This document shows positions 31,734-60,843 of a stretch of 64,000 nt of DNA, in pieces. The notes under the pieces were generated by a model. That model saw only the letters and a list, made by a program, of their open reading frames with translations, had not been told where the DNA came from and did no database searches. The stretch's first letter is position 1. Each line of letters begins with the position of its first letter. Source of the DNA: a virus; IMG/VR virus record IMGVR_UViG_3300039208_000624, one strand, 5' to 3'. Made by a program: the position numbers and the translations under genes.

Positions 31734-31752
31734 CCGCTTAAAAGTACACTAA
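31734..31752 (-). promoter_or_regulatory. TTAGTGTA-N8-CGG motif (candidate late promoter)
   Basis: TTAGTGTA CTTTTAAG CGG; the TAG is the stop codon of 31749..33752. Confidence 0.6.
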
Positions 31753-33752
31753 TTGATATCTCGGTAGATGAAATTGATGTTATCTGTTCCCAGGAAATTG
31801 ACATCAGTTATTTCTATCATCTCTCTAACATGCCATTCTGTAGCAAGTTCCTCCAACCTCAAAAGGAACACGCTGTTAATGGCTGGCGAACTTCCACCCG
31901 TTTGACCGCTCACATTACCAAGGGCCCAGTTTCCATTCGTCACTGTAGTAGATCCAGTAACCGTCGTCATATCATATATATCGCGGATAGCCGGACCAAT
32001 AAAATTGATCACTTCTTTTGGAGTACCCAGAACTGGAATCGAGCCAGTCGCCGGAAATGTTAGCGGCAACAAAGCCACAGGTCTTTCATCATTGAAATTG
32101 AATCGTCTCACTAAAATCTGCCCATTCTCAGCAAAAATTTTAGTCTTAGAAAAGTCTTGTGCCGTAGATTCGAAAGAGTCAACAAAGTTGAAGCTTGAAT
32201 CAAAGCGAAAGATTTCCAAGTTGGATGCCGTAAAATCTATGGCATAATAGTTAGTACCATCGAAACAAAAGTCTCTTAATATCTGTGCAGAAGCCAAGGT
32301 GCTCGAAAATACATCATCCACAAAATCCAAATCGTCAGCGTTCCATCTCATGATTCCCATAGCACTGCCAGGACTGCTGCTGGAATCGTTCACCATCTTT
32401 ACGACTTGATTACCTATCAGTTCAAGACCAACAGTATCGTCTTCCCACGTGTGAGTATTGAATGCGTTGGGAGACGGACGATTATCTGCTGGACGAACCC
32501 ACAAGGCTCGGCCCGTGAATGGAGAAATCAGTGCAAGTCCAGACCCTTCGTTTACCCAGAATCCAGCATTAAGGACCTCATATCCGTCCTGAATCTGCTG
32601 AGTAACAGTATTCTTAAGCTGAAACATGCCAGATGGGGGCGGCCACGTACTGATCAATCCTGATGGCACTGCACCATTAGGAAAGTCGGCTTTTTCATTA
32701 ACAACAGCTACTCGATACACCCCCTCAGCCTTAGCTCCCGGCGTCAAGAACACTCGACTGTCAGGAACTCTGCCCCCACCATTCACAATCACTCTATCGG
32801 AAGACGACACGTAGGTGAAATGATCTACAAAATCTGTATCATAAGTGTCAGTCTCAATATCCTGAACTCCAATACGATACTTAGTATCTGCGAAAAGAAG
32901 ATCGCCATTCAACTTCATTCGTCCGGCAACTGCGTCCGATATAGTAAACTCATCCGCATTTCTACCTGCACCAATGAAGGCACTCGACTCCCTGGAATTT
33001 GTAGTAATTAGTGTGCCATTTGGCTTCTGAAACATAGGAAAGAATGGTCGAGACATGAAGCGTGCTCTTTGAGCCGCATCTATATTAGAATTGTTGTCCC
33101 TAAGATCGCTGGTGTTAGTAGACGAAATCCATGGAAAAGGATTGAACATAACTTCGCCGAAATCGCGATCGAACATCACTCCCGACCCACCAAGCGTATT
33201 AATATCGTTGGACAATACGAAAGCTGATTGAAACTCAAGAGGAAAAAAGCTCTTGATGCCAAGCGGCTGTTCCTGTCTCGCGTACGGAGTCAAGTCTCCA
33301 AACGGATCGTTCAAAGCAGCCTGACCCGAGCTACCAGGATAAAAGTTGTTCAAAACATCAGCTTCTATAGCATCATCTGTGTATTCAGTGTCATACCTCG
33401 ACCATACGTCTGACTTAAGAAATCTTCGTAAATCAACAATATAGTCGAGGACAAGAGCGGACAGCGGGCCAACCTCTGCTTTGTGAAAATCAAAATTGTC
33501 TGCACCTGGAGTTGGCTCGAAATTTGTCGAAGAGAAGTCGAAGGGGTCTGGTCCTGGGCCGGATGGATTTAGAATTTGGAAGTGATCAAGATCCATGTCG
33601 GCCAGCTCTGTTTGTCGCAAACGTCTCCTCTCAGCTACTGCTACCCACATAGCCTGTTCGATTATAAGACCCGCAACACCAGACGGAAGATCGCCCCGGA
33701 AGGGCATGGTAATATCCCACTCGTATGGCACTATTCCGGACTGAAGGACCAT
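31749..33752 (-). CDS. Putative tail/baseplate structural protein (667 aa)
   Basis: Position in the distal tail operon; helical N-terminus and beta-rich, propeller-like C-terminal part. Confidence 0.6.
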   Translation of the reverse strand: MVLQSGIVPYEWDITMPFRGDLPSGVAGLIIEQAMWVAVAERRRLRQTELADMDLDHFQILNPSGPGPDPFDFSSTNFEPTPGADNFDFHKAEVGPLSALVLDYIVDLRRFLKSDVWSRYDTEYTDDAIEADVLNNFYPGSSGQAALNDPFGDLTPYARQEQPLGIKSFFPLEFQSAFVLSNDINTLGGSGVMFDRDFGEVMFNPFPWISSTNTSDLRDNNSNIDAAQRARFMSRPFFPMFQKPNGTLITTNSRESSAFIGAGRNADEFTISDAVAGRMKLNGDLLFADTKYRIGVQDIETDTYDTDFVDHFTYVSSSDRVIVNGGGRVPDSRVFLTPGAKAEGVYRVAVVNEKADFPNGAVPSGLISTWPPPSGMFQLKNTVTQQIQDGYEVLNAGFWVNEGSGLALISPFTGRALWVRPADNRPSPNAFNTHTWEDDTVGLELIGNQVVKMVNDSSSSPGSAMGIMRWNADDLDFVDDVFSSTLASAQILRDFCFDGTNYYAIDFTASNLEIFRFDSSFNFVDSFESTAQDFSKTKIFAENGQILVRRFNFNDERPVALLPLTFPATGSIPVLGTPKEVINFIGPAIRDIYDMTTVTGSTTVTNGNWALGNVSGQTGGSSPAINSVFLLRLEELATEWHVREMIEITDVNFLGTDNINFIYRDIN

Positions 33753-36700
33753 TACTGCTCTCGGTATCTCAGGAATGCGGGACGACTGATCTGGATAAAG
33801 TTTGTAGATGCAGTTACGCCGCCTGCACTCTGGATCTGAGCATCTACAGTAGCCAAGTAACCTTTATCCCCAGAGGCAGCAAACTGCGGAAATGGCAACA
33901 CAATGCAATCGCCAAACGTAGTTCCACTTGTTATCACATTACCCAGATTATCCAACGGCTTAGCAACCGCAATAGCATTAGGAGTACCCTGTCCGCTAAC
34001 AACAATAATTTCTACTGGCGTTACTCCTGCACCGCCCTCTGCCGCTGCGGGATTAAGGAACACTCCTCCGTCACCAACTCCTGGTTTCACTGCCGCATCA
34101 CCCTGAGCGGCAAGAGTCGTCTTATCTCCAATAGACACAGTTCCATTAAGAGGAGCAATATCAAACAAAGCACGAGTAGTCCCATTACCTGCCGCAGTAG
34201 GATCAACAATAGTCACGTCAAAACTGCCCGGAGTTACGCCGGCTCTCGCGACTTCAACAATAGTGCCGTTTCCAAAAGCACGTCCCTGAGTAAAATACCT
34301 AAGAACAGTATTCCCATTCGGCAATTCAAAATTATCCACGTGGTAGAGGGCCTGATCTCCTATATTAAGGAATCCATCAACACAGATAGCACCATCAGTA
34401 AAATCCTGATTTGCTCCACCGGCCGAGTGCGGCTTTGTGTACAACTGCTGATCAATACCCCGATATCTTTCGTCTTCTGCGTCGGCAACATTGGAAGCCA
34501 GAGTAAATACGTTATTCACTTCTGTAATAGTTACTCGGACAGCACGCTGCTCTTCATCGAAGAAGAATGGGGTTGGAATCTCGTCTCCTGGCAACTGAAC
34601 GTCGAGTGGAACCCCTGGACGCTGATTGCGTAGCTCAAGATCTGTGAAATCAATTGGATTGATTATTCCATCAAGCTGTGCCCTAACCCTGTCACCAAGA
34701 GGTGCTTCTCTGCCAAATCTCGGGAAGTATGATTGAACCTTATATCGTGTAGTGAATCCATCAATACCAAACGAAATATTCACTTCATTAACGCCGTGGG
34801 AAATCTCTCCATACTGTCCCGAAGGACCAATCCCTTGGTTAGCAAAGCTGTCGAATGACAATAGCGGTAATCCGACCTGGGTGAAATCCGCGTATCTCGA
34901 CGAACTTCGAGGAACAATACGTCCAACTGCACGACGAAAAGCTCTGTCTGTCATTACCTCGATAGAAGTGTCAGAACCACGCGGAGAGAAGGCCCAAGGA
35001 ACAAACTGGTCATCAAGCTGAACATCTTCATCACGCTGGAAATGATTCACGCCAGCAACCCAATTAGTCGGATAAGTCTGGCCATATCTGGAACGAGCCT
35101 CAACTGGAATAGCAACATCGTCAAGCTGTTGATAAGCGTTCAGTACAACGGCCGGATTTATAATATCCCTGATACCTGACCCCGTCAACTTATTCCGAGT
35201 CGTCAAAAGCGTAGCCAAATTTGCAAGAGTAGAGTTCTCGGCAACGCCAGTAGACGGACCCGCATTTACTGGCAACTGGCACAATAGAGTTCCTTCTGGG
35301 AAGGATTCGAAACTGTAAAGATCGTCACTACGAGGATTGATTACTCTTTGTCCCACAACCCTCAATTCAACTGGAATGTAATGTCGACCGTCGCCAGTAG
35401 GATTAAACGGCGGAGCATCTTCTGTCCAGTTTCCAAAACTGGCTGGCACCTCATCTCCTTGCGAGCCATACGCCGTATCAGCCGGCAACACACAGTGTGC
35501 TCTAACTCGAAAATCATCAGTCACAAACGGACTAATTGGACCAAGAGCACGACTGATCTGATAATCCTCAGTGAAGATTCCGCTACCCTGAGAGCCCGAG
35601 GGAGACAACGTAAATCCCTGAACCTGGTTCTCTACATTAGCCCAAGCCGCATCAACAAGCCTGTAAAAGCCAGACGCCGAGTTAAATAAAACACCCTCAG
35701 CCACATAGCTACGTCCATAATGACGTGACGCGTGATCACGCACACGCTGAAACCAGTTGATAACCCAGTTATGCTCTTCGTCCCTCCGATTACTAATAAC
35801 GCGTAAACCATTTTCGCCATCGCCGGTACCACCTCCGGCAATAGGCTGATTGATGTCGATTCTGCTCTGAAAAGTCTCGCTTTGTGCCGAAATATGTCCG
35901 GCATCAGTTACAGCACCAAATCCTGGAGTTTGTGCATTTGGATCATTTGTCTGATACTTTTTGTAATAAGTCCACTGCTCAATTCCAGCAAGAGCCATTT
36001 GAAGCTCTGTCTCAGATGGTATATATGTTCGATACGTTCCATCCTCGTGGAAAAATCCAATCGTAAGAAGGTCCCACGCTTTAGTAAACGTAACATTACC
36101 ATCCAGTAGAGTGGTATCCAAACCATCGATAGGACTCAGTATATCCGAATTAATGAATCCCTGCTGGTGCCCGCCTAAAACTCTGAAGCGAGTTGGGTCG
36201 GAAACTATATCCTTGCCAAAGCCGATTTGGCTTGTTGTGTCGAGGCCCGAAGCACTACCAAACTCGCTGACAATGTCCAGAATATCATTCTCGGAAGGAT
36301 CAAACGGGATGCGTTTATTGATCAAGCCGATCTTCTGACTGTCCATAATCCAATACCAATCAAATCCATGGTCCTGGAATATTCTTGTTACAGCCTCATC
36401 GAGGGGTGCAAGATTGAACTGCCATCTAATGGCCTCAATAGAGCCTCCAGTGTTTCTTGACAGTTGGTCAACCGATGGCAGCTCGCTTACAGGAAGAGTA
36501 ATCTGGCCTTCGTTAAAAGATAAGTCGACTGCCGCCAAAATCTGATCGTAAGACGCACCGAATCTAAGAATTCGTTCATACTCTCGAATCAACGAATCAG
36601 ACGCGTTCCCCATATTATCTTCGAAACCATTGATCTTGCGAAAAGCTCTTGCTACAGAAACCACTCCGCTTGGAACATCCTCCCCAAGATCTTCTGTATG

Positions 36701-41943: not shown

Positions 41944-42400
41944 TCATCACTCTCCAGGTACCAAAGAACGGCGAAACTCTATAAGTCTTTACGGTATTGC
42001 CGCCACCGTCCATAACATAAAGGTTGATGAAGATTGGATATTTGCTGTCAATTGGATTCTTACAAAGAATCCAGCCGGGCCTTTTGCCTTCAACATCAAT
42101 TGGGTAATACTCTATCACGAAACATCCATCACCACGATTAAATGTCTCTGTAGATATTTCTCCTTCATCTTCGAAGAAATCTTTCTCGCTTCGAAATGCT
42201 CTAAATTGTGCGGGAGTATTCTCGGCAGGAAGTTGAAGGACTATGCCCTCAAATACTGAAATCTCGTTGATTCCAGTGCCACCCAGCTTGAAGGTTTGGT
42301 GGTCTTCTTTTGAGCACTCGATACAAACATCTTTCCCAAAGTGGGTAGTGACGTGTAGAGTCCCAGTATTGCCTCGATCTTCGAAGCGTGCTTTTAACAT
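41933..42400 (-). CDS. Hypothetical protein (155 aa)
   Basis: AAGGAG RBS; its own upstream TTAGTGTA motif. Confidence 0.75.
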   Translation of the reverse strand: MLKARFEDRGNTGTLHVTTHFGKDVCIECSKEDHQTFKLGGTGINEISVFEGIVLQLPAENTPAQFRAFRSEKDFFEDEGEISTETFNRGDGCFVIEYYPIDVEGKRPGWILCKNPIDSKYPIFINLYVMDGGGNTVKTYRVSPFFGTWRVMNGS

Positions 42401-42440
42401 CTTGTACTCCTTTACCGAGAACTAAGCCGTGGCTACGTCC

Positions 42441-42459
42441 CAATTAAGGAGTACACTAA
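42441..42459 (-). promoter_or_regulatory. TTAGTGTA motif (variant downstream box)
   Basis: TTAGTGTA CTCCTTAA TTG(GG), overlapping the U-tail of the terminator. Confidence 0.5.
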
Positions 42460-42489
42460 AACAGCCCGCAGACTCAAATCCACGGGCTG
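42458..42489 (-). terminator. Rho-independent terminator after the 61-aa gene
   Basis: CAGCCCGTGGA-TTTGAG-TCTGCGGGCTG (11-bp stem with two G-U pairs) followed by TTTT. Confidence 0.75.
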
Positions 42490-42506
42490 CAAGAAAGCTT
42501 GGTCGC

Positions 42507-42692
42507 TTACGAAAGGTTCGTGAACGGATTAGTCTCGGTAATACCGACACCAAGGTTCTCGATGCTGCTCACAGCAGCGTGCAACGCAGAGCTACCAACT
42601 GGACGATCTGTCCTCAGCTCGATCTTTGTAGACCAGCCCCAAAGAACAAAGTTGGCGTTGTTGGTTGCGGAATTGCTATTGATGGTTGCCAT
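42507..42692 (-). CDS. Small protein (61 aa) in its own transcription unit
   Basis: MATINSNSATNNANFVLWGWSTKIEL...; CAGGGGGAA RBS, upstream TTAGTGTA motif and downstream terminator. Confidence 0.75.
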   Translation of the reverse strand: MATINSNSATNNANFVLWGWSTKIELRTDRPVGSSALHAAVSSIENLGVGITETNPFTNLS

Positions 42693-42748
42693 CTGAATTC
42701 CCCCTGTTATTCTTTCCGAGTTGATATCAACGAGACCTACTTCGGTCG

Positions 42749-42767
42749 TCGAAGTATACTACACTAA
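42749..42767 (-). promoter_or_regulatory. TTAGTGTA-N8-CGA motif (candidate late promoter)
   Basis: TTAGTGTA GTATACTT CGA; the TAG is the stop of 42764..43408. Confidence 0.6.
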
Positions 42768-43408: not shown

Positions 43409-43578
43409 TAGACCATCTTCATTTTCCTGGCCAATTCCAAAGCTTCGTCGTCCGGCAGTGGAACCCAAGTACCCGCATAATATTGGGCGAATATTAATCG
43501 TCTATTCAGCTCAATAAGCCTGACTCCTCTTGGCAACTGCGGCTCATCTTTCTTTTCAATTCTTAGATTGATTTCCAT
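43408..43578 (-). CDS. Small hypothetical protein (56 aa)
   Basis: Not in the ORF track. MEINLRIEKKDEPQLPRGVRLIELNRRLIFAQYYAGTWVPLPDDEALELARKMKMV; TAATG overlaps at both ends. Confidence 0.65.
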   Translation of the reverse strand: MEINLRIEKKDEPQLPRGVRLIELNRRLIFAQYYAGTWVPLPDDEALELARKMKMV

Positions 43579-44603
43579 TAGCTGAAGTCTATCGTAGTGA
43601 AACTTTCAAAATTACACCTATCGTGTAATCCAAGCTCTTTAGCTTTATTGTCATAAGCCATGGCGGCATCTAACTCATCATCAAAGCTTCCAAGATACAG
43701 GGTTCGTGCTTTATGTTCAATACGTGCTTGATATTTATTTCGCTTCTTATGCACTCCTCTATATTTCGAACTTTGAAAAGTACGTAAATCATCTATTCTT
43801 TTCGCACGATCCAAAACCTTTAAGTATCGGTCATACTTTCTATCAAGACGAACATCTTCGTTACATCCATGATATATCCAATTCAGAAAATTCAATGTAT
43901 CTCTAAAACCAGCAAAAACAAGTTGAAAGTGACTCTTGTCAATATATATTTTACCGCCGCCAAACTTTTCTTGAATCCACTCAAGTATTGATTTACCGCC
44001 AGTTATACAAGCTCTCCATGTATTTCCTTGGCTAACTTTATATATAGATCCATCTCCATCAAAATAACCGCGTACAAAATGACGAATCATTTTCTCATCG
44101 TAAATATTGGGAGGTTCAATAATCAAAGACTTTCGTTCTATAACAGAAAAATTCTCTTCCAAATCACTTAGAACGGTCGGTATACCGTATATGTTTATAA
44201 CACAATAAGGACTTCCTTTTTCCCTATCATAGGTATACACATTCCCATCAAAATTTATCATTGTCTTGAACTTTTCCAAATGACTCCTATCGTCATCTTT
44301 CAAAAGTATCCTGAGTTTCTGTTGTGACAATGACACGCATCCATCCGCTGCAATAAATCCAGCCCAATACGAAGATTCTTTCGTTATTTTACTAAAGAAA
44401 TTTTCATCACAACAATAACGCTTCTTGGCAATTGAAGTCATCTTAAGCCTATCAGACTTTAACCCTACTTTTTTAGCTTTTTTATGAAGAGCTATATCTG
44501 TTCTATTCGGAAAATATCTTTTTACAAGCTGCTTTGCCGGCAAAGTGCCATACACCTCTTTGAATAAACGTAATTCGCTCTCAGTCCAAGCATTACCCTT
44601 CAT
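43578..44603 (-). mobile_element. Free-standing LAGLIDADG homing endonuclease with N-terminal Myb-like HTH and C-terminal AP2 domain
   Basis: WTESELRLFKEVY..RT..ALHKKAKKVGL; SYWAGFIAADGCV and RHFVRGYFDGDGSI; SKYRGV..K..YQARI...YLGSFDDELDAAMAYD.KA.EL. AT-rich. Confidence 0.9.
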
Positions 44604-44633
44604 ACTTTAATCCTACTCATAAAATCTTATTTA

Positions 44634-44652
44634 CCGAAAGGTCATACACTAA
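44634..44652 (-). promoter_or_regulatory. TTAGTGTA-N8-CGG motif (candidate late promoter)
   Basis: TTAGTGTA TGACCTTT CGG, upstream of the LAGLIDADG gene. Confidence 0.6.
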
Positions 44653-45230: not shown

Positions 45231-46730
45231 CTACAGAATAATGTCCGAAGATGCTGACTGAACGCTGGCCAAATCCACTGTAAAGCCATAGGTAATAGAA
45301 GCCTGAACAGTTAGTGATCTATCGTCTATAGTCTTGTCTGGCCCAGACTGAACAAACAGTTCCACAAAATTGCCCGCATTCGCATGTATCTTACGAAGCC
45401 TATTCATTTCATCCTGAACGAAAGTCAAAACTCTGGCATTGTCTGCATCGGGGTTTCCTGTATTCTTTGCTTGTGCCTGACAGTTAATCGTAACTGAGCC
45501 TGCCGTCGTAGTTTTAATATCCTGCACAATAGGACCAAGACGTCTAAAAGGAATAGGATGGATCGCCATCTGCCTGATTCCCTCAGTTCTTTGTACAGTA
45601 CAATTTCTGTTGACAATTCCGCTTGGTAGATCAAGAGAAGGATCATCCGTGTAAGTGACAGAGAAATCAATCGTTCCTCGACATTCGTTCTGAGTGATCT
45701 GGAACGCAGTCGGATTATTAATATTTAGTCCACTTCCAATGGCCCCCTTATACTTTACGTATACTCCCGAGGCATCTGCGGGAAGCTGTGGACGAATATG
45801 GTTTACAAAGCCTGAGCAAGCCCGCTCAAATCCTCGCCCTCCTGCCGGACCAAAACTCGGAGACAGTGTTCTGCCAAGTCCCTGTACTGTACCCTGCAAA
45901 GTAACTGTGGCAATGCCCGCTGTGTCTTCTTGGAACTGACTATTCCGACTTTGGAAGAAGAATGGGACTCCGCTTACAATCGTAAAGACTTCTGTCGCCG
46001 AGTATGATCCGTTAGCAATGTCAGCCGTTTCTTCTCTTTGTACGGAAACTTCAAATACCGGTCCACCGCCCGCAACACTTGGATGCGTGATATTGAATAG
46101 GCCAGATGCGTTCGGCTCTACAAAGCATGGAAGAGTAAGAGGAAGTTTATCGATACCCAAGCGTGTCTTGACCGCACGTAACGCTTGTTCAAACTTATCC
46201 GTTGCCTCATCTGGGCCAGTAGCATCAACAGTATGCGTTACCTCAACAACACATGCGTCTCCATTCTCTCGAAATGTCCATTGATCACTAAGGCTTGATG
46301 TTACCCCACTAACTCCCGAAACAGCGGTAAAATCCTCAAGCTCTACCGTGTAATCAAATCGAGTAACATGAATATCGGGCTCAATATTAAGCGAGACCAC
46401 TCGCGGAGTGATACCGGAGCAAATAACAGAGCCGGACGGAAGAGTTTTGTTGCCAGCACCCGCACGAATAGTAAAGTCAAGATTATCAGTTGCGAACGCC
46501 GTCCTCAACTGCTCTTGTTTCGTGTACATTTGCTCATAGCTGCCCGAAGGCGTAATAAGCACTGTGCCATCAAGCGAGATTCGAGTCCTGTTTCGGATTC
46601 TCACTCCAGCATCATTAAACTCCGGCTCGACAGTAAAATCCACAAGCGGACCGGGAACCAGCTTACAATCACCGTAGAATACCTCTACGGCCGAAAGCGG
46701 TGGATTAGGTACTTGTGATAATACGCTCAT
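45231..46730 (-). CDS. Putative distal tail protein (499 aa)
   Basis: Immediately downstream of the tape measure (canonical Dit position); beta-rich. Confidence 0.6.
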   Translation of the reverse strand: MSVLSQVPNPPLSAVEVFYGDCKLVPGPLVDFTVEPEFNDAGVRIRNRTRISLDGTVLITPSGSYEQMYTKQEQLRTAFATDNLDFTIRAGAGNKTLPSGSVICSGITPRVVSLNIEPDIHVTRFDYTVELEDFTAVSGVSGVTSSLSDQWTFRENGDACVVEVTHTVDATGPDEATDKFEQALRAVKTRLGIDKLPLTLPCFVEPNASGLFNITHPSVAGGGPVFEVSVQREETADIANGSYSATEVFTIVSGVPFFFQSRNSQFQEDTAGIATVTLQGTVQGLGRTLSPSFGPAGGRGFERACSGFVNHIRPQLPADASGVYVKYKGAIGSGLNINNPTAFQITQNECRGTIDFSVTYTDDPSLDLPSGIVNRNCTVQRTEGIRQMAIHPIPFRRLGPIVQDIKTTTAGSVTINCQAQAKNTGNPDADNARVLTFVQDEMNRLRKIHANAGNFVELFVQSGPDKTIDDRSLTVQASITYGFTVDLASVQSASSDIIL

Positions 46731-49700
46731 TAGATTGATTGTCCAAGACTACTAAGCTGACTGTTCTCTCGAAGAACCCCCAATGCCACCTCGATTTGCT
46801 CCAAAACAGGATCAAGCTGTGCTGCAATCTGCTCAGAAGCGGCAGACTGAATTGCTGCCTCGATCTCGGTCCTAAGATTCTCCAGTCCAGTAACAGTTAC
46901 ACTACTTTGCTGGTTAGTTGTGACATCAATAGCCACGTTGCCGCCTGCTCCTGCGGCTCCCGGAGTGTTTCCGGTATCGGCAGCAGCCGCCGTAGTGGCA
47001 GAGGTAGTCTCAATGTTCGACAAGCTTGTAATGGCTGTATCCAAGAGATTGGCCACATCATCAAGCTTGTCATTAGTCATACGGGACTGCTCAAGCTGAT
47101 CCTGTCCATCACCATTATCGACGTCGGTAAGTGCCTGAGTAACCGATCGGGCAATCGCTGCCACAACCGTTTCATTGATTCCCTTGATGCTCTCAATGCC
47201 AGCCGCAATATCACTGCCGCCCTGGAAGTTCGGCACGTGACCCTTGTTTCGAGTCGGAATGATGATCTCGGAATCATTGGCAACAGCCAATCCGGCACCG
47301 CCCGGCATCGCACGCTTCTCTCGTGCCGCCGCCTGAATCAATCCTGATATTTCGTCCAGCGACAAGTTTCCGCCAGCAAAGTTCGGAATAAATCCCTTCG
47401 CACCATTTCCTACTGCGGCACCAAGCACTCCGGCTCTGGCACCAGCAAGACCCCTGATAGCCTGAACGATGTTGTCGCCGATAGCGGCAAAAGCAGAGTT
47501 TTGCTCCCTGAACAGCTCGGCTTCACGAGTAATCAAGTTCAAAGTATCCTGACTGCCCGCCTGAATGATCTGATCAGTAAGCTGATTCTGCAATGCTTGT
47601 GCAGACTGCAAAACGCTTGTCTGCTCAAGAACGGCAAGCTGCACGCCCATGAGATTTTCGCGAGCACGCTCTTCTGCAATCTCGGCTGCGTCCAACTGTT
47701 CCTTGGCTGCATCCAACTGCTCGCGAGCCGCGAACAACTGACCAAACTGAAGCTCTGCATCTCTTTCGGCAAGACCCTGCAATCTTTCAAGCTGGGCAAC
47801 TTGCTGCTGAGTAAGATCCTCAATAGAGGGAAGACCAATACCTGCTCCGGCCCCAGCACCAAGCTGGCCGATAGCCGTCTCAAGCTGCTCAACGCTAAAG
47901 CCCCCGATGTCCACACTGCTCGGCAGCAAATTGAGAGCATCAAGAATCTGTCGGCGGAATTCGACTGGCAGATTGAGAAGCTCATTCCCAAGCTGATTTA
48001 TATTGCTGTCCGACAGGCCCAAGAATGACTCGAAAGATCCGCCCAATCTCTGGGCGATCATCTCAAGTCCCTGGATTCCCGTCTGCAATGCGGCGTTCTC
48101 TTCGCCCGTCTGGCCGAATACAGTCAGTCCAGCATTAACAATCTCGCCTTTCGCCTGCTCCAGAAAAGCGATTGTCTCTTCGGCCAACTGACGCTCAAGC
48201 TCTATACGCTTTTGCAGTGTAAGATTTGAATCCTCAAGAACAGAATTGAAAGACCTATTCAGTCCGGTCAGTCGACCTTGGAATGTCGAAACTTCTCCGG
48301 TCAGATTTGCAATCTCTGTACCGATCAGATTGGATTCGATTCGTCCTTCGGCTACCACGTCATTGAATTCAAGGACGGCACGGTTGAAGTCAAAGAATGC
48401 GTCAGAAAGATTCTGCGTGCTGGATAGCACATCCTGCTGTGCCGACTTCAGATCGCTCTGAGCACTTGCCACCTGATCAAGGCCGGACTGCTGCTGATCC
48501 TGAATAAATCTATCAAGCTCAACTCTGGACTCTCCAAGAGTCTGATTAAACTTACGCTGTGCCTTCTCCAGCTCCTCAAGAGCCTGGATTCTTTTCTTTT
48601 CTTCTTCTGCAAGCTTCTTTTGCTGATCAAACTGTGCCTGAACACGCTTGATAGTAAGCTGCAAACGCTCCTCGTCTCGTGAGCGAATCAAGTCCGCAAT
48701 CTTCTGCTCTAACTTTTCCCTATTCTTAAGAGCCTCATCCAAGGCAACTCCACCAGCCTGACGACGACCTCCGGCCTGTGCATCTTGGATGCTGCTATTA
48801 AGTGCGTCGAGCTGTGCTTTGTACGCATCAATCGTAGTGGCCGAAGCCATAAGTGATGCCTTCAGCTTCTCGTTGGCTTGGGTGATAGGATCACCAGCAA
48901 TAATCTTGACAAACCTTTCAATCTCTGCCGTAGCACTTATAGTTCCATCCAGAATTCCTTGGATCTGTGAGCCATCAAATCCCTGCAAATCATTTATAAG
49001 ATTGCCTCCAAGGGCTCCTCCAATACGGATGAGCTGATCGTTGAATTTGATTACCCCTTCCGCAGCCTTCTCTGCTGCCTCTCGTTCCTGATTTGCAAGC
49101 TTAATTCTTTCTTCTGCACGAATGCGGGCCTCTTGGAGATCAAGCTCCTTTGCATCCTTCTCAAGCTCAACAGACTGCACAACAGCCTTAATGATATTAT
49201 TTACTTGCTGTGAAGTAAACTGGCTTAGACTAAGAACCTCGGGCCTAAGTAGATTTTTGATATCGTCAATACCCTGAACAACCTCTGGTCCCGCCGTATC
49301 AACGATGTTGCGTACGGCATCAGCAAGCGATTGTCCTGCCGCCTGATTCCCAGTATCAGAAATGGCATCGGACAGAGTCTTAAATGAATTAGCAGTCTTA
49401 ATAGCGACAATCTGACTCTCAGTTTGAATTGCTTGTAAGCGTTCCTGAGTAGTAGGATCAAAACCAAGATCCTGATTGGCCAACTCCGCATTCAGTGAAT
49501 CAAGCTCCGCACGCAGCTCTGTAGCAACGTTACGAAGGTTGGCAAGCGGCCTAACCACATTTTGATCAAACTCAAGACTATCAAGACGACGCTGGACAGC
49601 TCCTGTTGCCGTCTCAACCGTATTGAGTGGACGAATGACATCATCACCAATCTGAGCAAACAAGTTCCGGATCAAGAAGACTGCACGGTTAACGCCGCTA

Positions 49701-51826
49701 AGATCTACGTCTGCATCACGTAGAGCATTATCAAAGCCGTCAATGAATTCTTGTGCGGCATCAGCTCCACCCAATCTTTGCTCTGCAAGCTTGTCGGCAA
49801 TCTGAGGTAGAATCTGGGCACCCAAGGAGCTTCGAGCAATTTGCTCAAGAACCTGTGGGGACAACCCCGCCTTGTCTGGATCAAGCTCAATGTTCTCTGT
49901 TAATAGTTTGACGAATTCATCGGGATCAAAGTTGCCAAAAGCGTCAACAGTTCGGGATAGTGCATTTTCAATGTCGGCAAATGCCTCTCCACCTTGCAAT
50001 GCACTTCGTCTGAATTCATTTAGTGCTTGTGCAGTTCTTTCATTTTCCTCAATATCAGCAAGCTGCTGACTACGCTCCTCAAAGAACTTGGCAAGATCAG
50101 TACCACTTTGAATAATGGCAGTGAAGGAACCCGCAACGAGACCGGCCTTCGCACTGATCAGTCCGAACGATAAGCCTGTGTTTAGGGCGTTTGAGCCGAT
50201 GTCATCAAAGCTCTTCAGAGTGTCACCAAATACGCTGTCACTCTCTCCAAACCTGTCGGTCAGAACCTTGGTAACTGTATTTAGTGTTACCATAGCGGCA
50301 GCTATCAAGCCAACCTTGCCAGCCGTAGTATTGAATGCATCGGAAGCCTGGATCGCAGCTCCAATCAATCTACGCTTCGCGGTTACTTGAGTAGCAGAAG
50401 TAGTATTAAGCAAGTTGATCTGAGTTACTGCACGACCGAGCTGCTGGTTAAAGCCCTTGAAGTTACTGCCACCCCCGCCACCAGATCCACCAGATCCGCG
50501 GGCACCGAATATAGAACGACCTGCGGCTACTGCACCTACGAGACCAAGCGGACCAAGAGACGCACCGAGTCCGTCAGCAAGACCAACAATGGCCTGCAAT
50601 CCTTTGGCAAGCTGATTAGCTGCTTCTACCGCACTACGGAAGAAATCAAGAATTCCTGACTGACCAAGAACACCCGCCAGCTTTTGAAACTCGCCAATTG
50701 TCTGCTGAATTTGGAAGCCAAGTCCCTTCTGTACTACTGCAAGTTTCTCATCGGAAGTGCCCTGAGCTTCTGACGCTATGGCTGTCAGCTCGTTTGCACG
50801 CTCAAGAGAATTGAGGGTAGCAGTCAGAGACTCAAACTGACGAACACCGGCAATAGACTTAGCGGCCGAGGCTGCTTGGGCCTCAGTAAGACCGTCAAAG
50901 GCCGTCTTCAAATCATTAAGAACGTCAAGGGTGGGTCTCAGTGAACCATCAAGATTTTCAACAGAAACTCCCAGTCCCTCTACCGCATCTCGGGCTTCGC
51001 CAGCAGCGAACAGTCGAGTCTGCAAAGTCTTAAAGAATGTACCGACTTCACGTCCAGACTTACGTGTCTGCTCAGTAAGAGCGGCAACCAACGAAACAGA
51101 GTCTTCGAAGCTCTTGGCGAACTCGGCCAGAGCATTACCGCCAGTACGGAAGGCTTCTGCCACATCCTGGGCGTTAACAGCAGCAGAGTCCTCGACCTTG
51201 GCCAAGACGTCAACTGCTACAGATGTGTTTTCTACTTCGTCGCGGAACTGCTTGGATACCTGAATCAAAAGTTCTTGTGCCTGAGCCAGCCCCAAAGTAG
51301 TAACCTGAGAAGCCAACGTGGCTTTCTCAGCATTTTCAAACGCTTCTTCAATACTGAAGCCAGCCTGCTTGAATACCCTGACAGTATCCGCAACCTCTTC
51401 TACGCTGGCACCAAGATTAATACCGATACGGAAGATGTTCTCGGCCAAGAATCCAAACTGATCGCTAAGACCCTGAATATCAATTCGGATAATTTTCAGA
51501 AGCTGTTGCTCGAAATCCACAAGAAACTTGGCACCGCCTTGAATAGAACGATTAAGAGTTGCAAAAGCTGGCAATAGCACGGCGAACTGAGCCATACGCT
51601 GCAAAAACGTTCTTGCCGCATTGGACATTGATCCAACATTGCGGGCGGTTACAGCAGTAGTCTTATTAGCCTTCTGCATCTGACGATTTACATCATCAGT
51701 GTGACGTACGGTTTGCTTGAGGTTAACATTGATACCGGCAGTAAGCTGACTAAGCTGTCTGAAAACAGCCTGATTAACCTGAACGCCAGTCAGTCTTAGT
51801 ATGGCATCAAGTTGTACAGCGGCCAT
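46730..51826 (-). CDS. Tail tape measure protein (1698 aa)
   Basis: TP901-type core (DFEQQL..I.R..., EEVADTVRVFKQAGFS, AEAFRTGG, KSGREVGTFFKTLQTRL, IAGVRQF), long A/L/Q/E-rich helical body. Confidence 0.93.
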   Translation of the reverse strand: MAAVQLDAILRLTGVQVNQAVFRQLSQLTAGINVNLKQTVRHTDDVNRQMQKANKTTAVTARNVGSMSNAARTFLQRMAQFAVLLPAFATLNRSIQGGAKFLVDFEQQLLKIIRIDIQGLSDQFGFLAENIFRIGINLGASVEEVADTVRVFKQAGFSIEEAFENAEKATLASQVTTLGLAQAQELLIQVSKQFRDEVENTSVAVDVLAKVEDSAAVNAQDVAEAFRTGGNALAEFAKSFEDSVSLVAALTEQTRKSGREVGTFFKTLQTRLFAAGEARDAVEGLGVSVENLDGSLRPTLDVLNDLKTAFDGLTEAQAASAAKSIAGVRQFESLTATLNSLERANELTAIASEAQGTSDEKLAVVQKGLGFQIQQTIGEFQKLAGVLGQSGILDFFRSAVEAANQLAKGLQAIVGLADGLGASLGPLGLVGAVAAGRSIFGARGSGGSGGGGGSNFKGFNQQLGRAVTQINLLNTTSATQVTAKRRLIGAAIQASDAFNTTAGKVGLIAAAMVTLNTVTKVLTDRFGESDSVFGDTLKSFDDIGSNALNTGLSFGLISAKAGLVAGSFTAIIQSGTDLAKFFEERSQQLADIEENERTAQALNEFRRSALQGGEAFADIENALSRTVDAFGNFDPDEFVKLLTENIELDPDKAGLSPQVLEQIARSSLGAQILPQIADKLAEQRLGGADAAQEFIDGFDNALRDADVDLSGVNRAVFLIRNLFAQIGDDVIRPLNTVETATGAVQRRLDSLEFDQNVVRPLANLRNVATELRAELDSLNAELANQDLGFDPTTQERLQAIQTESQIVAIKTANSFKTLSDAISDTGNQAAGQSLADAVRNIVDTAGPEVVQGIDDIKNLLRPEVLSLSQFTSQQVNNIIKAVVQSVELEKDAKELDLQEARIRAEERIKLANQEREAAEKAAEGVIKFNDQLIRIGGALGGNLINDLQGFDGSQIQGILDGTISATAEIERFVKIIAGDPITQANEKLKASLMASATTIDAYKAQLDALNSSIQDAQAGGRRQAGGVALDEALKNREKLEQKIADLIRSRDEERLQLTIKRVQAQFDQQKKLAEEEKKRIQALEELEKAQRKFNQTLGESRVELDRFIQDQQQSGLDQVASAQSDLKSAQQDVLSSTQNLSDAFFDFNRAVLEFNDVVAEGRIESNLIGTEIANLTGEVSTFQGRLTGLNRSFNSVLEDSNLTLQKRIELERQLAEETIAFLEQAKGEIVNAGLTVFGQTGEENAALQTGIQGLEMIAQRLGGSFESFLGLSDSNINQLGNELLNLPVEFRRQILDALNLLPSSVDIGGFSVEQLETAIGQLGAGAGAGIGLPSIEDLTQQQVAQLERLQGLAERDAELQFGQLFAAREQLDAAKEQLDAAEIAEERARENLMGVQLAVLEQTSVLQSAQALQNQLTDQIIQAGSQDTLNLITREAELFREQNSAFAAIGDNIVQAIRGLAGARAGVLGAAVGNGAKGFIPNFAGGNLSLDEISGLIQAAAREKRAMPGGAGLAVANDSEIIIPTRNKGHVPNFQGGSDIAAGIESIKGINETVVAAIARSVTQALTDVDNGDGQDQLEQSRMTNDKLDDVANLLDTAITSLSNIETTSATTAAAADTGNTPGAAGAGGNVAIDVTTNQQSSVTVTGLENLRTEIEAAIQSAASEQIAAQLDPVLEQIEVALGVLRENSQLSSLGQSI

Positions 51827-54918: not shown

Positions 54919-54942
54919 AAAAAAGCACCCTACACGGGTGCT
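54919..54942 (-). terminator. Rho-independent terminator after the tail tube gene
   Basis: AGCACCC-GTGTA-GGGTGCT followed by TTTTT, directly before the next ATG. Confidence 0.8.
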
Positions 54943-54987: not shown

Positions 54988-55017
54988 GCCTACTCAACCC
55001 TAATGGGTTGAGTAGGC
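54988..55017. repeat. Perfect 13-bp inverted repeat (hairpin, 4-nt loop, no U-tail)
   Basis: GCCTACTCAACCC-TAAT-GGGTTGAGTAGGC in the 3' UTR of the tail tube gene. Confidence 0.9.
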
Positions 55018-55040: not shown

Positions 55041-56459
55041 TTAGAACAATCCGAAGTCGCTTCGCTTAAACGAGTCGCCACCCACGTTGAATCGACTGTT
55101 TCCAGTTTCGAACAACACGATGCGATGGTTCGGCTGATAAAAGTCGTGAGACACGTTAAACACGTTGAAGGTCGTATAGTTGTAAGTGACGGTCATATTG
55201 TCGCCACCGGCATCTCCGCCGGCCATATCAACGCTTGTCAAGCGGCTCGTGTCACCCAGGTCAACCTGAAGACCGTCACAAGTTCTGATAATGACGGACT
55301 GACTGGACTGAGTGTTGTCGGGTCCACAGTCGATCGCCGAAGTAGCATCAATCAAATCGCCTTGAGCAGTGATAACTTCGATAGTTGTCGTCACTTCAAT
55401 GGGGAAGGAAACAACCTTGGCAAACGGACGTTTCGATCCAAGCTCGAAGATATCGTCACGACCGATAGTGGCAGAAACAGTGATCGTCTGAACATGTTCA
55501 GCGATATTATCCGTATTGGCATCACCAATCAACTGACTGACACCGCCAGCCGTTCCCGGTCCCTGAGTACCAAATCCACCATTCACAAATGCGTTGTCGA
55601 CGCCAGAAGCGACAAAAGTTGTAACGCCTGGAATATCGTCCGGGAGAACCGAACGACGAATATCGACTTCTTCGCGACGCTGGATACCAGAACCGACCAC
55701 TATGACGCCGAATCGATCGTTTCCACCTGCAATTTCGGCAGCACCACCTTCAACCAAAGTTGAAGTCAAGCCGTCGTTACCGAAGTGACCAGAAGGAAGA
55801 CCTTCAGGAGCATTTGGATTATTGCCAAGAGCATCATCTGGCCAAATTACCAAAGGCTCTCCACCACCCTGGCCACCATTATGGCCAGCAGTAATACCAG
55901 AGATCGCCTGGAATGTGCCCCAGATCTTGTCGTTGCCAACCAGAGTAATATCTTCCGTTACGAATCCATCAATCGGGAACGTATATGAAATATTCGACAC
56001 ATACATTCCAGAAGCCGTAACAATAGAGATAGGACGTCCGGTTGCACGGAACTGACTGTCAGGATAGATCTGCATCGCGACATCAACCCGGTACACATTA
56101 GTACGAGCAATAATGTCGTTCTGCTGAGTAGGATCAGTTACCATGAAGAAGAGAGGCTTTGCACCGTCAATGGCTTTCGAAAGCGTCATCTCAATATCAG
56201 GCTGTCTTTCCGAGTATTCGTAAAGCTCAACCTGACCAATCTGGAACACCTGCTCCAGATTAAAGTTTGTTGTCATGCCGGCAGACTGAAGCCCTCGGGG
56301 GACCTCCCATACGCCGCCGACCTCATCAATTCCAGAGGCGAGAGGGCCGTTCGCGTATTCACGGGAGTTGCGTGGGGCAACCGTCGAAGTTGCCGCTGCC
56401 GCATTATCCTTGATAGCGACTTGCTCAATCGCCCAAAAGACACGATTGTTGGTTACCAT
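55041..56459 (-). CDS. Putative major tail (tube) protein (472 aa)
   Basis: GLQSAGMTTNFNLEQVFQIGQVELYE, IFELGSKRPFAKVVSFPIEVTTTIEV; own TTAGTGTA motif, strong RBS and terminator (signs of an abundant protein); upstream of the chaperones and TMP. Confidence 0.7.
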   Translation of the reverse strand: MVTNNRVFWAIEQVAIKDNAAAATSTVAPRNSREYANGPLASGIDEVGGVWEVPRGLQSAGMTTNFNLEQVFQIGQVELYEYSERQPDIEMTLSKAIDGAKPLFFMVTDPTQQNDIIARTNVYRVDVAMQIYPDSQFRATGRPISIVTASGMYVSNISYTFPIDGFVTEDITLVGNDKIWGTFQAISGITAGHNGGQGGGEPLVIWPDDALGNNPNAPEGLPSGHFGNDGLTSTLVEGGAAEIAGGNDRFGVIVVGSGIQRREEVDIRRSVLPDDIPGVTTFVASGVDNAFVNGGFGTQGPGTAGGVSQLIGDANTDNIAEHVQTITVSATIGRDDIFELGSKRPFAKVVSFPIEVTTTIEVITAQGDLIDATSAIDCGPDNTQSSQSVIIRTCDGLQVDLGDTSRLTSVDMAGGDAGGDNMTVTYNYTTFNVFNVSHDFYQPNHRIVLFETGNSRFNVGGDSFKRSDFGLF

Positions 56460-56502
56460 TTCTTATTTCCCCCTGCAAGCACGCTTGCAAAAACAGTGTA
56501 CA

Positions 56503-56521
56503 CCGCCTATTACTACACTAA
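56503..56521 (-). promoter_or_regulatory. TTAGTGTA-N8-CGG motif (candidate late promoter)
   Basis: TTAGTGTA GTAATAGG CGG; the TAG is the stop of 56518..57543. Confidence 0.65.
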
Positions 56522-57543: not shown

Positions 57544-57819
57544 TGCAAGATACCTCTATATATTGTACTAATCCTTTAAGCCAATCGGCTCTATCTTGGG
57601 TTGGCAGGGATCTATTGCATTTCAAGCAAAGTATGCCGAAATCAAAACTTCTCCACAACTCTTGATTTCGATCTGTACATTTGTGACACGCAAGCCAATT
57701 CTTTGGATTGGTTTTTACTGAATCAGACCTATTGTTCCTACGCCATACCTTCCACTGGAATCTTGCTTAAAATCTTTCAAGTCTTTGGTAATGTCACAAA
57801 CCCCGCACTCTTTATTCAT
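57533..57819 (-). pseudogene. Frameshifted remnant of an endonuclease VII-type homing endonuclease
   Basis: Frame A: MNKECGVCDITKDLKDFKQDSSGRYGV...* (34 aa, N-terminal Zn-finger pattern). Frame -1: ...LACHKC...FGILCLKCNRSLPTQDRADWLKGLVQYIE* matching the EndoVII GLLC..CN..L...D...L..YL tail. Confidence 0.5.
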
Positions 57820-58355: not shown

Positions 58356-58357
58356 TA

Positions 58358-58933
58358 CTATCCTCTGCCGAAATGAGACTGATTGATTCGTACCTTGGCG
58401 TGCCCCGGAGAAAGTACAAAAACTCTATCTGCCGGATTATTAACAAATACACGTTGTTTGGAAATTGGATCTATTTTTTCTCTTGAAGATCCCAATCCTT
58501 GGTATGTTAAAAGTCTCGGATTCGAAGTGACAGGAGTCAAGAAAGTACCAATTCTTAATCTGCCAAAAGCCGTAGAGTTTGTAATAGTCCCGCTCGGCCC
58601 TACATAAGCTTTGTCGCCTTGCTTAATAGTGCCCACTTCATGAATCCAGTCAGTAACAACTTCTCCGTCAGTTATGACACCAACAATCGCAAGAGGTTCG
58701 TCGGTTCTTCTGTACCTCTTGGGATAAGGCTCACGATCATGTTCGATAAACTCAATATCATTGTATTGAATACCAATAGGAAAAGACCCACTGGGATTTG
58801 CCAGATACCTAAGTGCTTGAATTCCAGATACAGTGGTATAAGACAGAACGCCCCCTCGTTCGGAGGTGTCAATCCCAATAGAGTCAACATTGACCCCAAA
58901 AACCTGTCCTGCTGTACCGAGCCTTAAAGACAT
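58358..58933 (-). CDS. Capsid decoration/cement-like protein, paralogue of 62883..63347
   Basis: ERGGVLS...P.GI..NDIE...VGVITDGEVVTDW...GDKAYVGPSG.IT...RIG.FL aligns with the 154-aa protein. Confidence 0.65.
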   Translation of the reverse strand: MSLRLGTAGQVFGVNVDSIGIDTSERGGVLSYTTVSGIQALRYLANPSGSFPIGIQYNDIEFIEHDREPYPKRYRRTDEPLAIVGVITDGEVVTDWIHEVGTIKQGDKAYVGPSGTITNSTAFGRLRIGTFLTPVTSNPRLLTYQGLGSSREKIDPISKQRVFVNNPADRVFVLSPGHAKVRINQSHFGRG

Positions 58934-59289
58934 TAGAGATGCATCCTTTTGCTCGCTTCAACAATCGCTTTCTTGATAGCAAGCACCTTAGCCCTTCGAT
59001 TCTTAAAAGGACCCTCAATATCTATCTCTTTGATAAGCCTGTCGAGAACAACTTCGGGAGTGATCTTTCCAAGCTCTTTATAAGTAAAAGCAATCATACT
59101 AAAGGGCTTTTCAAACAAAAGCTTGAGATATGCCTCCCTATACGTAGCCTCTTTTAAACAAGTTCTACGATTCATCTTGTAAGTGTGCATATCAACATCT
59201 GTGGGCGGCATACCTGTATGACTACCGTGAATCTTGTAGGAACCTATATACAAAATCCCGTTTGGTTCTTTATAGTGAACTAATACCAC
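58933..59289 (-). CDS. Hypothetical protein (118 aa)
   Basis: Operon-coupled basic ORF. Confidence 0.55.
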   Translation of the reverse strand: MVLVHYKEPNGILYIGSYKIHGSHTGMPPTDVDMHTYKMNRRTCLKEATYREAYLKLLFEKPFSMIAFTYKELGKITPEVVLDRLIKEIDIEGPFKNRRAKVLAIKKAIVEASKRMHL

Positions 59290-59429
59290 TTACGTAATTC
59301 TTTCTTTGTCCTCTGACGTTCCCGAGACTTGTACGTCTTTCGATTTTTCTTCCTGGCTCCCCAATCAGGGGAGTTGCAGCAATAACAGTATGGTCCACGA
59401 TTATCCAACTTGAGTCCATATGGCCTCAT
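59280..59429 (-). CDS. Small basic protein (49 aa) with CxCC motif
   Basis: Not in the ORF track. MRPYGLKLDNRGPYCYCCNSPDWGARKKNRKTYKSRERQRTKKELRKWY; TAATG-coupled to the upstream gene and fills the gap. Confidence 0.6.
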   Translation of the reverse strand: MRPYGLKLDNRGPYCYCCNSPDWGARKKNRKTYKSRERQRTKKELRKWY

Positions 59430-60307
59430 TACCACACCATCTTTCCGAAGTTACCACTGTTCCGGCTCAGGAATGCCTTAATGGCTTCATCTAACTCTTG
59501 CTTACGCATCTCAGCATCAAACTTAGCGAGATTAACACGAGCATTCAGACGACCGCCCTGAATGGTAACATTCACATTATCTGCATTTGTTACGCTGATT
59601 CCATCTCGCGAAGCTGCTTGTGCAAGAGAAGCAAATGGTCCGCTACCAACAGACGCACCGAGTCTCTTAAGTGCTGAAATCTCACTTGATACGATGATAT
59701 ATTCCATCTGCAAGATCACAAGGTCGCAAACCTCGTCATTGTTTGGCGTCAACGTACCAGCCTCGATATCAACAACAATAGGAGTGACGCGGATTCTTCT
59801 GCCACCGAACTGACCTTCAATCCCCGTTGGTCCTCGGAATGCTACCGCCGTGCCGAGCTTTTGATTGAGTCTCCGAGTTGCCTTTGTCAGTGCTCTCGAC
59901 AAAAATCCATCATCGAACACGATGCCGTCTGGATCTCCCAGATCGATCCGGACTGCCTCATAAATTGACCCTGTTTTATCAGAGCCAGGCACAAATCCTA
60001 TCTTTACATTTACATCTTGTACACAGAATTGTTCAGTAGCCTGCAAATGAGTCATCGCCGCCGTGATGATGTCCCATTCTACTCGCCAGTTGCCAATCTC
60101 GAACCCTGCCGGAATAACTCCTGTTCCTGTATACTTACCAAGAGAAGGATTTGCCGCCACGCCGCTGGCCGCCTGCATGCCTGCGGCATCAACCAGCTTA
60201 AATCCAACGAAGTGTCCGCTAACGGAGGCAGAATTCGCATCTGTCAAAAAGATGTCCAATTGAGCTGCGTTCGAGCCCACAAGAAGTGTTTTAGTTTCGC
60301 CGGACAT
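59429..60307 (-). CDS. Putative head-tail adaptor (neck) protein with N-terminal beta domain (292 aa)
   Basis: AVRIDLGDPDG..FDDGFLSRAL (adaptor-like helical start) preceded by an Ig-like N-terminal part; downstream of the capsid gene. Confidence 0.55.
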   Translation of the reverse strand: MSGETKTLLVGSNAAQLDIFLTDANSASVSGHFVGFKLVDAAGMQAASGVAANPSLGKYTGTGVIPAGFEIGNWRVEWDIITAAMTHLQATEQFCVQDVNVKIGFVPGSDKTGSIYEAVRIDLGDPDGIVFDDGFLSRALTKATRRLNQKLGTAVAFRGPTGIEGQFGGRRIRVTPIVVDIEAGTLTPNNDEVCDLVILQMEYIIVSSEISALKRLGASVGSGPFASLAQAASRDGISVTNADNVNVTIQGGRLNARVNLAKFDAEMRKQELDEAIKAFLSRNSGNFGKMVW

Positions 60308-60816
60308 TATTCATCCCTATCCTTAATAAGGAAATCTACCTTAGTAGATAATTCTGCCACTTCCCTTAAAAGGTCATCTAAATGAGGTTTTACGTAGGTT
60401 ACATGATCAGCTCTTGTCCATTTATCTTTCTGAAGAATAATCACTTTGTTGGAAATATCGTTTAATTGCTTCTCAATTGCTTCAACGTTTTCTACTACTC
60501 CAGCGTGCCCCTTTTCCGCACGATGATCATTGAAATTGCCTTCTATTCTATCAATTCTCTCGCTATGATTATCCTGAGTCTGTAATGGCCCCCACGCCGC
60601 CGCTCCGATCAAAAGTGCGGCAACTGTAACCATAGTAGCAGCTAACATATATTGAGGTTTTTGACTCGCATCAATTTTACGTCCAAAAACTTCAATAGTC
60701 TGTTCCAGTCGGTCCATCACTCCTTCAAGACGACCAAGTCTCTCAAATAGTTCCGGACGATTATCTCTATCCGTCATAAACCGACCTTTCGCATCTCTTC
60801 GCTGCAACTCGCCCAC
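60307..60816 (-). CDS. Single-TM coiled-coil membrane protein (169 aa)
   Basis: Coiled coil, TM segment YMLAATMVTVAALLIGAAAW, then a second coiled coil; GTG start. Confidence 0.6.
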   Translation of the reverse strand: MGELQRRDAKGRFMTDRDNRPELFERLGRLEGVMDRLEQTIEVFGRKIDASQKPQYMLAATMVTVAALLIGAAAWGPLQTQDNHSERIDRIEGNFNDHRAEKGHAGVVENVEAIEKQLNDISNKVIILQKDKWTRADHVTYVKPHLDDLLREVAELSTKVDFLIKDRDE

Positions 60817-60824
60817 TTAATTAC

Positions 60825-60843
60825 CCGTATGAAAGTACACTAA
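60825..60843 (-). promoter_or_regulatory. TTAGTGTA-N8-CGG motif (candidate late promoter)
   Basis: TTAGTGTA CTTTCATA CGG; the TAG is the stop of the HNH gene. Confidence 0.65.

Follow-up and report, generated by a model that had tools for sequence, protein, structure and literature searches.

A conserved intergenic octamer as probable core of late promoters in an uncultured group of tailed phages

Introduction

Late promoters of phage T4 carry TATAAATA at -10 and are read by gp55 together with gp33 and the gp45 clamp; Bacillus phage SPO1 employs a sigma cascade of gp28 followed by gp33/gp34, acting on bipartite -35/-10 promoters. A late promoter of T4 can furthermore sit inside a hairpin that sequesters the ribosome-binding site (RBS), as for I-TevI, segB and gene e (PMC2988022). 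In phage phiEco32 the sigma factor gp36, helped by gp79, reads AATGTA at -14..-9 (centred at -11.5) in middle/late promoters and also needs contacts at -37/-34 (Nucleic Acids Res 2025, PMC12276001). Here we describe a comparable element in the IMG/VR virus record IMGVR_UViG_3300039208_000624, of which a stretch of 64,000 nucleotides (nt) was analysed, hereafter the window. It is the 8-mer TTAGTGTA which, in its extended form TTAGTGTAnT, is probably the core of late promoters without a -35 box, read by a phage sigma factor on the host core RNA polymerase (RNAP).

The gp36 system of phiEco32 is the closest known analogue. AATGTA there and AGTGTA here are one base apart, both elements are short, phage-specific and (here by prediction) of the -10 type, and early genes depend on host sigma-70 in both cases. 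gp36 is a small protein of two domains (sigma2-like plus sigma4-like) working on the host core polymerase, and it has the small partner gp79; relatives of our virus encode two sigma candidates, termed sigma-1 and sigma-2, of which sigma-1 is always preceded by a gene for 125-156 amino acids (aa). Differences are evident as well. No relationship of sigma-1 or sigma-2 to gp36 is detectable in their sequences, SigH and FliA being the closest proteins of solved structure, and gp36 makes its -37/-34 contacts whereas no upstream conservation is seen here. Host, virion type and genome size (~77 kb vs ~170 kb here) differ too.

T4 is similar to the predicted case here in using an element of 8 base pairs (bp) at -10 only, without -35 box, in front of virion and homing endonuclease genes, and possibly also in the promoter-in-hairpin arrangement, here at 61777-61739. 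The sequence of the element is different, however, and the candidate sigmas retain a sigma4-like domain. With SPO1 the group shares two phage proteins of the sigma-70 family, temporal promoter classes and early promoters for the host sigma, but SPO1 promoters are bipartite and here one phage-specific motif was found for two sigmas. TTAGTGTA adds an example to a well-known type of phage gene switch and leaves the understanding of phage transcription unchanged. What it provides is a transcription map (host-type, often leaderless early promoters plus one late promoter) for a wholly uncultured group of ~150-180 kb tailed phages, and a motif usable for operon and late-gene annotation in about 30 related metagenomic genomes. 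Two sigma candidates are offered for testing, and the putative -10-only phage promoter is like that of phiEco32 in sequence, with sigma proteins lacking detectable sequence similarity.

Results and Discussion

Six coding-strand copies at gene junctions of the window

The window corresponds, in reverse complement, to a 67.8-kb IMG/VR contig with a completeness rating of 37%. An exact scan finds six copies of TTAGTGTA, starting at 31752, 42459, 42767, 44652, 56521 and 60843, exclusively on the minus strand, which also carries 100% of the genes. These are the very coordinates at which the first-pass annotation had placed six copies on the coding strand at gene junctions. It had estimated about one copy per strand by chance; 100 dinucleotide shuffles of the window gave a mean of 1.1 copies with a maximum of 4, and six were reached in 0/100. 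All copies lie in or at intergenic gaps with the next start codon 27-75 nt downstream, and the TAG of the word doubles as stop codon of the upstream open reading frame (ORF) at 31752, 42767, 56521 and 60843, four cases being also the number first reported. The candidate promoters are as follows.

60823..60843, minus strand: candidate late promoter P1; TTAGTGTA at 60843-60836, T at +9, CGGG at +16..19
56501..56521, minus strand: candidate late promoter P2; TTAGTGTA at 56521-56514, over the stop codon (TAG) of the 341-aa gene; the 472-aa gene begins 62 nt downstream
44632..44652, minus strand: candidate late promoter P3; TTAGTGTA, with a free-standing gene for an HNH endonuclease (43578-44603) beginning 49 nt downstream
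42747..42767, minus strand: candidate late promoter P4; TTAGTGTA over the stop codon (TAG) of the 234-aa gene; the 61-aa gene (42507-42692) begins 75 nt downstream
42439..42459, minus strand: candidate late promoter P5; TTAGTGTA immediately 3' of a 13-bp hairpin; the 155-aa gene begins 59 nt downstream
31732..31752, minus strand: candidate late promoter P6; TTAGTGTA over the stop codon (TAG) of the 667-aa gene; the 226-aa gene (31034-31714) begins 38 nt downstream

The exact scan finds no copy in the replication/glycosyltransferase half, on the opposite strand or in the remaining 4.8 kb of the contig, in agreement, for that half, with the earlier search by eye. Over the window as a whole, variants with one mismatch show no enrichment (14 on the gene strand vs 18 on the other). 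One of them, TTAGTTTA, is located at 61777-61770 in the capsid/HNH gap and shows T at +9 and GG at +17/18. It is the most enriched one-mismatch variant in the intergenic DNA of the lineage, with 6 observed vs 0.87 expected.

About 980 terminal bases of the window (63018-64000) lie outside the 67.8-kb contig but carry ORFs on the same strand, and window and contig differ at three single bases.

The word is conserved in relatives

Using the tail tube candidate, the 472-aa protein, as query we retrieved 34 IMG/VR loci. The genomes they belong to measure about 150-183 kb, and several have terminal repeats. Four whole relatives (G001-G004) and this contig form the five-genome set. Upstream of the tube gene, TTAGTGTA is found at a distance of 60-100 nt in 11/13 first-round relatives and in 15/15 further main-clade loci listed, and the intergenic sequence around it has diverged. 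The two exceptions have an HNH gene inserted at this place, and in G004 the inserted HNH gene carries the motif itself.

In total the five genomes contain 51 copies vs 14-19 expected from Markov models. The first-pass annotation had named an equal frequency inside coding sequences or on the other strand as a possible objection. Gene junctions account for 8% of positions and for 42/51 copies (binomial 5e-37). In 19 non-identical structural-region loci (394 kb), 48 copies lie on the coding strand and the opposite strand has 0. Depletion inside genes is mild only (9 observed vs about 13-17 expected). TAGTGTA is the top enriched intergenic 7-mer (49 regions vs 4.6 expected), followed by tRNA T-loops, sigma-70 boxes and Shine-Dalgarno sequences. 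Among orthologous junctions, those at 60843, 56521, 42767, 42459 and 31752 carry the motif in 2-4 of the four whole relatives, a count which accepts the TTAGTTTA variant at the 42459 junction. Taken together, the comparison argues that TTAGTGTA is a conserved functional element. A literature search for the 8-mer returned unrelated primers only.

In either arm of the relatives' genomes, the word always points the same way as the gene that follows it. This bears on an antisense promoter, which had been put forward as an alternative at first: the opposite strand reads TACACTAA, where TACACT agrees with TATAAT at 4/6 positions, resembling a sigmaS-like -10 box. Besides the orientation, the region +25..+31 of the sequence logo, the place of an antisense -35 box, shows no conservation and the window has no opposite-strand gene; we give an antisense promoter practically no credence.

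Two other origins of the word were rejected. It is not a recognition site or insertion scar of an endonuclease, as 5/6 window sites are kept at junctions without endonuclease gene in the relatives. Neither is it a by-product of a conserved protein C-terminus, since the codons preceding TAG differ and two sites are purely intergenic.

Architecture of the motif

A logo was built from the 51 sites of the five genomes. It extends the core to TTAGTGTAnT, with T at +9, a position outside the search word, in 47/51 sites. A7 is invariant and T occurs at +11 in 33/51 sites. No conserved -35 box is found, the information at -50..-1 being <= 0.17 bit. Downstream of the core, +8..+16 is poor in G and +17..+20 is rich in G. 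The G-rich zone is still present in 33 sites with a start codon at least 45 nt away and hence is more than a Shine-Dalgarno sequence.

In the window, N8 after the word is followed by CGG at 31752, 44652, 56521 and 60843, by CGA at 42767, and by TTG and then GGG at 42459. The fixed N8-CGG spacing noted earlier for four copies is therefore real, but its interpretation as second box of a bipartite motif did not hold: relatives show mere G-richness at +17..20, CGG (positions 16-18) lies in this G-rich zone, and the true extension of the core is the T at +9.

The nearest start codon is 26 nt from the motif, and in the shortest cases a Shine-Dalgarno sequence occupies +17..22. Because of these two distances the start site should lie within about 10 nt of the word, which excludes a role as upstream activator box. 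The G-rich zone at 17-20 is likely the start site. Two registers fit. In a sigma-70-like one, TAnTnT (positions 6-11) would be the -10 hexamer with a start near position 18; in a phiEco32-like one, AGTGTA would correspond to -14..-9 with a start near position 16. The extent of T7-like promoters (about 18-23 bp through +1) is not matched by the about 10 bp conserved in the logo. Nor is the layout of host sigma-70 promoters seen, in which 16-18 bp separate a TTGACA-like -35 from a TATAAT-like -10 box.

MotA boxes of T4 and phage operators are precedents for regulator sites, and a short, invariant, strand-specific word at junctions might similarly be the DNA site of a phage activator or repressor beside promoters and not an element recognised by the polymerase. 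Yet the word is non-palindromic and no separate -10/-35 elements stand at fixed distance on either side. With a start codon as near as 26-33 nt and the Shine-Dalgarno sequence in between, there is no space for a downstream promoter, and the hexamer 12-20 bp downstream that a MotA-type arrangement, with its box near -30, calls for is not conserved. A regulator site is hence considered very unlikely.

Genes behind the motif

Genes downstream of the motif in relatives comprise portal, decoration/virion-protein-like and tube genes as well as the fibre block. Moreover, at least 5 HNH/EndoVII homing endonuclease genes are preceded by it. Some of these run counter to the early arm in which they are inserted and so require their own promoter; their ATG lies 28-32 nt past the motif. 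The first-pass annotation had regarded the motif as a mark of structural/late genes. This stands for the virion genes and has to be widened to free-standing homing endonuclease genes and to an operon encoding sigma-1. In 8/11 relatives, TTAGTGTA lies over the stop codon of an upstream SbcC/RecF-like ATPase gene, within 70 nt before the pair formed by the small gene and sigma-1. This places the sigma-1 operon within the regulon, whether through autoregulation or as the target of a cascade.

A strong GC-rich hairpin (folding energy <= -15 kcal/mol) directly precedes 11/51 copies vs 3% of random windows. Strand specificity and intergenic position would also fit a word that acts in RNA (UUAGUGUA), as a processing/cleavage or protein-binding site in polycistronic late transcripts. 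Many copies, however, come right after strong terminators, isolated endonuclease genes opposing the surrounding transcription carry the word at the short distance given above, the same word stands before the sigma operon, and no conserved RNA structure accompanies it. We rate an RNA site as more improbable still than a regulator site.

Early promoters and phage sigma candidates

The opposite-strand arms of the relatives contain near-consensus TTGACW-N17-TATAAT promoters. In G004, 16/18 of the near-consensus early promoters are located at 1.9-61 kb on the minus strand. Such promoters are absent from this contig, and weaker sigma-70-like sites in the late region are as frequent as in shuffles. 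As the early arms of the relatives use ordinary promoters, the host primary sigma should read those and TTAGTGTA marks a different class.

In the early arms of G003 and G004 (e.g. L052, L053, L061-L063) the ATG follows about 7 nt after the -10 box in about half of the cases; hence leaderless early mRNAs are predicted. The ribosome-binding sites of late genes, in contrast, are strong (GGAGG). The 7/8-mer found most often in the relatives, CTTGAAA, was rejected as a signal; it is mostly a coding-sequence word and led to the consensus early promoters.

Sigma genes were searched with TIGR02937 and Pfam Sigma70_r2 in 11 main-clade relatives (the four whole ones plus seven further). Sigma-1 is present in 11/11 and a full-length sigma-2 in 10/11, G006 having a short, 138-aa version of the latter. 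Sigma-1 (about 173-208 aa) is predicted to fold into two helical domains joined by a disordered linker; the model matches sigma factors alone in the PDB, and the best sequence relative is SigH. The gene directly before it has no known family. Sigma-2 (about 209-240 aa) aligns to FliA over its full length, and its gene is located between DnaE/SSB-like genes and a glycosyltransferase-like gene of ~600 aa. Neither the conservation in alignments nor the single sigma of a more distant clade discriminates between the two, and k-mer enrichment yielded no third, middle-class motif for a second sigma. Of the two kinds of reader considered at the outset, a phage sigma or a phage RNAP, the former is represented by these two sigma-70-family genes of the relatives. 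The model for T7-like RNAP (PF00940) found no match in the five genomes and control genomes were equally empty, so the absence is weakly shown.

Based on conserved junctions, co-orientation, terminators, virion genes, the sigma genes of the relatives and the separate early sigma-70 class, we consider it likely that TTAGTGTAnT is the core of -35-less late promoters read by a phage sigma on host core RNAP. The inference of a late promoter of this lineage, made from six copies, gains accordingly from the relatives. The word would act as DNA on the coding strand with no need of a -35 box, in a layout of core, about 7 G-poor bases and a G-rich start zone. Host core RNAP with a phage protein of the sigma-70 family would bind the word, and RNA would start about 8-11 nt downstream of it in the zone that contains CGG. 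Either the two-domain sigma-1 (~178 aa) or the FliA-like sigma-2 (~220-240 aa) might be the reader.

Several points weigh against this. The gene calls of the relatives are crude, simple ORF calls. A family-model search detects neither sigma gene in this contig, which is about 37% of a genome, and at 16938-19325 of the window sigma-2 is missing from its usual place, where a 115-aa SSB-like and a 605-aa glycosyltransferase-like gene abut. AGTGTATAAT forms the -10 region of some early sigma-70 promoters in the relatives, and positions 6-11 (TAnTnT) resemble an ordinary -10 hexamer. The missing sigma-2 decides nothing because 63% of the genome is absent from the contig. The use of AGTGTATAAT means that the motif overlaps the sequence space of host -10 boxes, so that some probability remains with the host sigma.

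The copies would then be -35-independent promoters of an extended -10 type for the host primary sigma, perhaps with a phage co-activator or appropriation factor, and the phage sigmas would serve other promoters. The invariant A7 and the prevailing T9 and T11 of the hexamer suit this, as does a geometry with the start about 7 nt past the hexamer; AGTGTATAAT occurs in several consensus early promoters and GGTGTATAAT-like versions exist in the distant clade. On the other hand, the invariant part is TTAGTG plus TA and not the hexamer, hexamers in the window are poor (TACTCC, TATGAC, TAGTAA), and the canonical TGn extension is one base out of register. The same genomes use near-perfect TTGACA/TATAAT for their early genes, and two conserved phage sigma genes would be left without an enriched motif. 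Altogether we hold reading by the host sigma to be rather unlikely and prefer a phage sigma.

A more specific version of the phage-sigma promoter is tentative and less likely than not. In this version the small SigH/ECF-like sigma-1 would read TTAGTGTAnT without -35 contact, co-transcribed with its 125-156-aa partner from a promoter of the same class. Like phiEco32 gp36, though evolved to do so independently, it would contact the upstream half of the -10 region in duplex form, and a promoter inside a terminator/RBS hairpin would turn on an HNH endonuclease late in a T4-like manner.

Transcription units of the window

In the window the motif would head six, perhaps seven, transcription units: the post-capsid genes, the tail-tube gene, an HNH homing endonuclease, the 61-aa gene, the fibre/adhesin block and the last late gene. 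The seventh depends on the variant site P0, whose function as promoter is less certain. Further features around the candidate promoters are:

61757..61777, minus strand: variant site P0; TTAGTTTA at 61777-61770, 44 nt before the HNH/DNA-binding gene (60840-61733)
61739..61770, minus strand: 13-bp hairpin and U-tract after the 352-aa capsid-region gene; -25 kcal/mol, z = -5.2
55041..56459, minus strand: 472-aa gene behind P2; two terminator-like hairpins follow (54924-54942 and around 54988-55017)
42461..42490, minus strand: hairpin of 13 pairs resembling an intrinsic terminator; -21.8 kcal/mol, T-tract running into the P5 motif
30995..31016, minus strand: strong terminator-like hairpin and T-tract 3' of the 226-aa gene, closing the late block

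P1 overlaps the TAG stop of the HNH gene, within whose 3' end it is situated, and is followed by a 169-aa and then a 292-aa gene. The HNH/DNA-binding (297 aa) and 169-aa genes at 59429-61733 are lacking in the four whole relatives. There, terminator, TTAGTGTA and 292-aa gene come directly after the capsid-region gene. The word lies 26-54 nt before the ortholog of the latter in 4/4 whole relatives. Since nothing corresponds to them between the capsid-region and 292-aa genes, the HNH and 169-aa genes look like a two-gene insertion that retained the promoter in its 3' end.

Upstream of this HNH gene, the 3' arm of the hairpin at 61739-61770 contains its ribosome-binding site AAGGAG, and the predicted start of P0, GG at 61760/61759, falls inside the 5' arm. 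Read-through transcripts would thus terminate and hide the RBS, and transcripts from P0 could not form the hairpin, a possible parallel to T4.

The 472-aa protein behind P2 is probably the tail tube protein, a lead taken from language-model features and a protein atlas. The HNH gene behind P3 is mobile, occurs only in this genome and has no counterpart at that place in relatives. At the P4 junction the motif is kept in 4/4 whole relatives and stands 63-79 nt upstream of the 61-aa gene's ortholog. The 155-aa gene behind P5 heads the fibre/adhesin block of 1619, 1110 and 667 aa. The corresponding junction has TTAGTGTA in G001 and the TTAGTTTA variant in G002, and in G001 and G003 TTAGTGTA follows a comparable hairpin. 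P6 precedes the last gene of the late block, and the motif is seen in G004, G003 and G001, 93-100 nt before the ortholog of this 226-aa gene.

PHROGs matches identify the tape measure protein (46730-51826) and the HNH-type endonucleases at 60840-61733 and 43578-44603. The 1619-aa protein has LamG and PKD domains; most other late proteins of the window matched no family. Neither the late region (megablast) nor the tube protein (tblastn) has a match among deposited phages, which for the tube protein amount to 50,697 genomes.

The leader after 42459 (42400-42445 of the window) and the orthologous leaders of G001 and G003 share GGCTTAGT(C/T)TCGG, so that this stretch is conserved across three genomes and may represent a structured 5' untranslated region.

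A distant clade with an altered motif

Loci with a tube protein 42-44% identical lack TTAGTGTA. Its place is taken by GGTGTATAAT, GGTGTATTAT or GTGTATAAG, and other junctions of this clade have GTGTATwA. Comparing both clades, GTGTAT is the common core, to which only the main clade adds TTA. In the two near-complete genomes of the distant clade, a single sigma gene was detected above the family cut-off. A clade with an altered motif and one detected sigma is a possible handle on the co-evolution of sigma and promoter. At the tube-gene junction of L124, L125 and L127-L129, around 9900-9960, words like GGTGTAT(A/T)AT are observed.

As a minor observation on tube-gene leaders, AACTTTGCAAAG recurs about 40-60 nt before the tube gene in L010, L014, L016, L120 and L122. 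In L012 and L020 the string encodes CNFAKY, at the 3' end of an inserted HNH gene. Its presence in the leaders may be a remnant of lost endonuclease genes.

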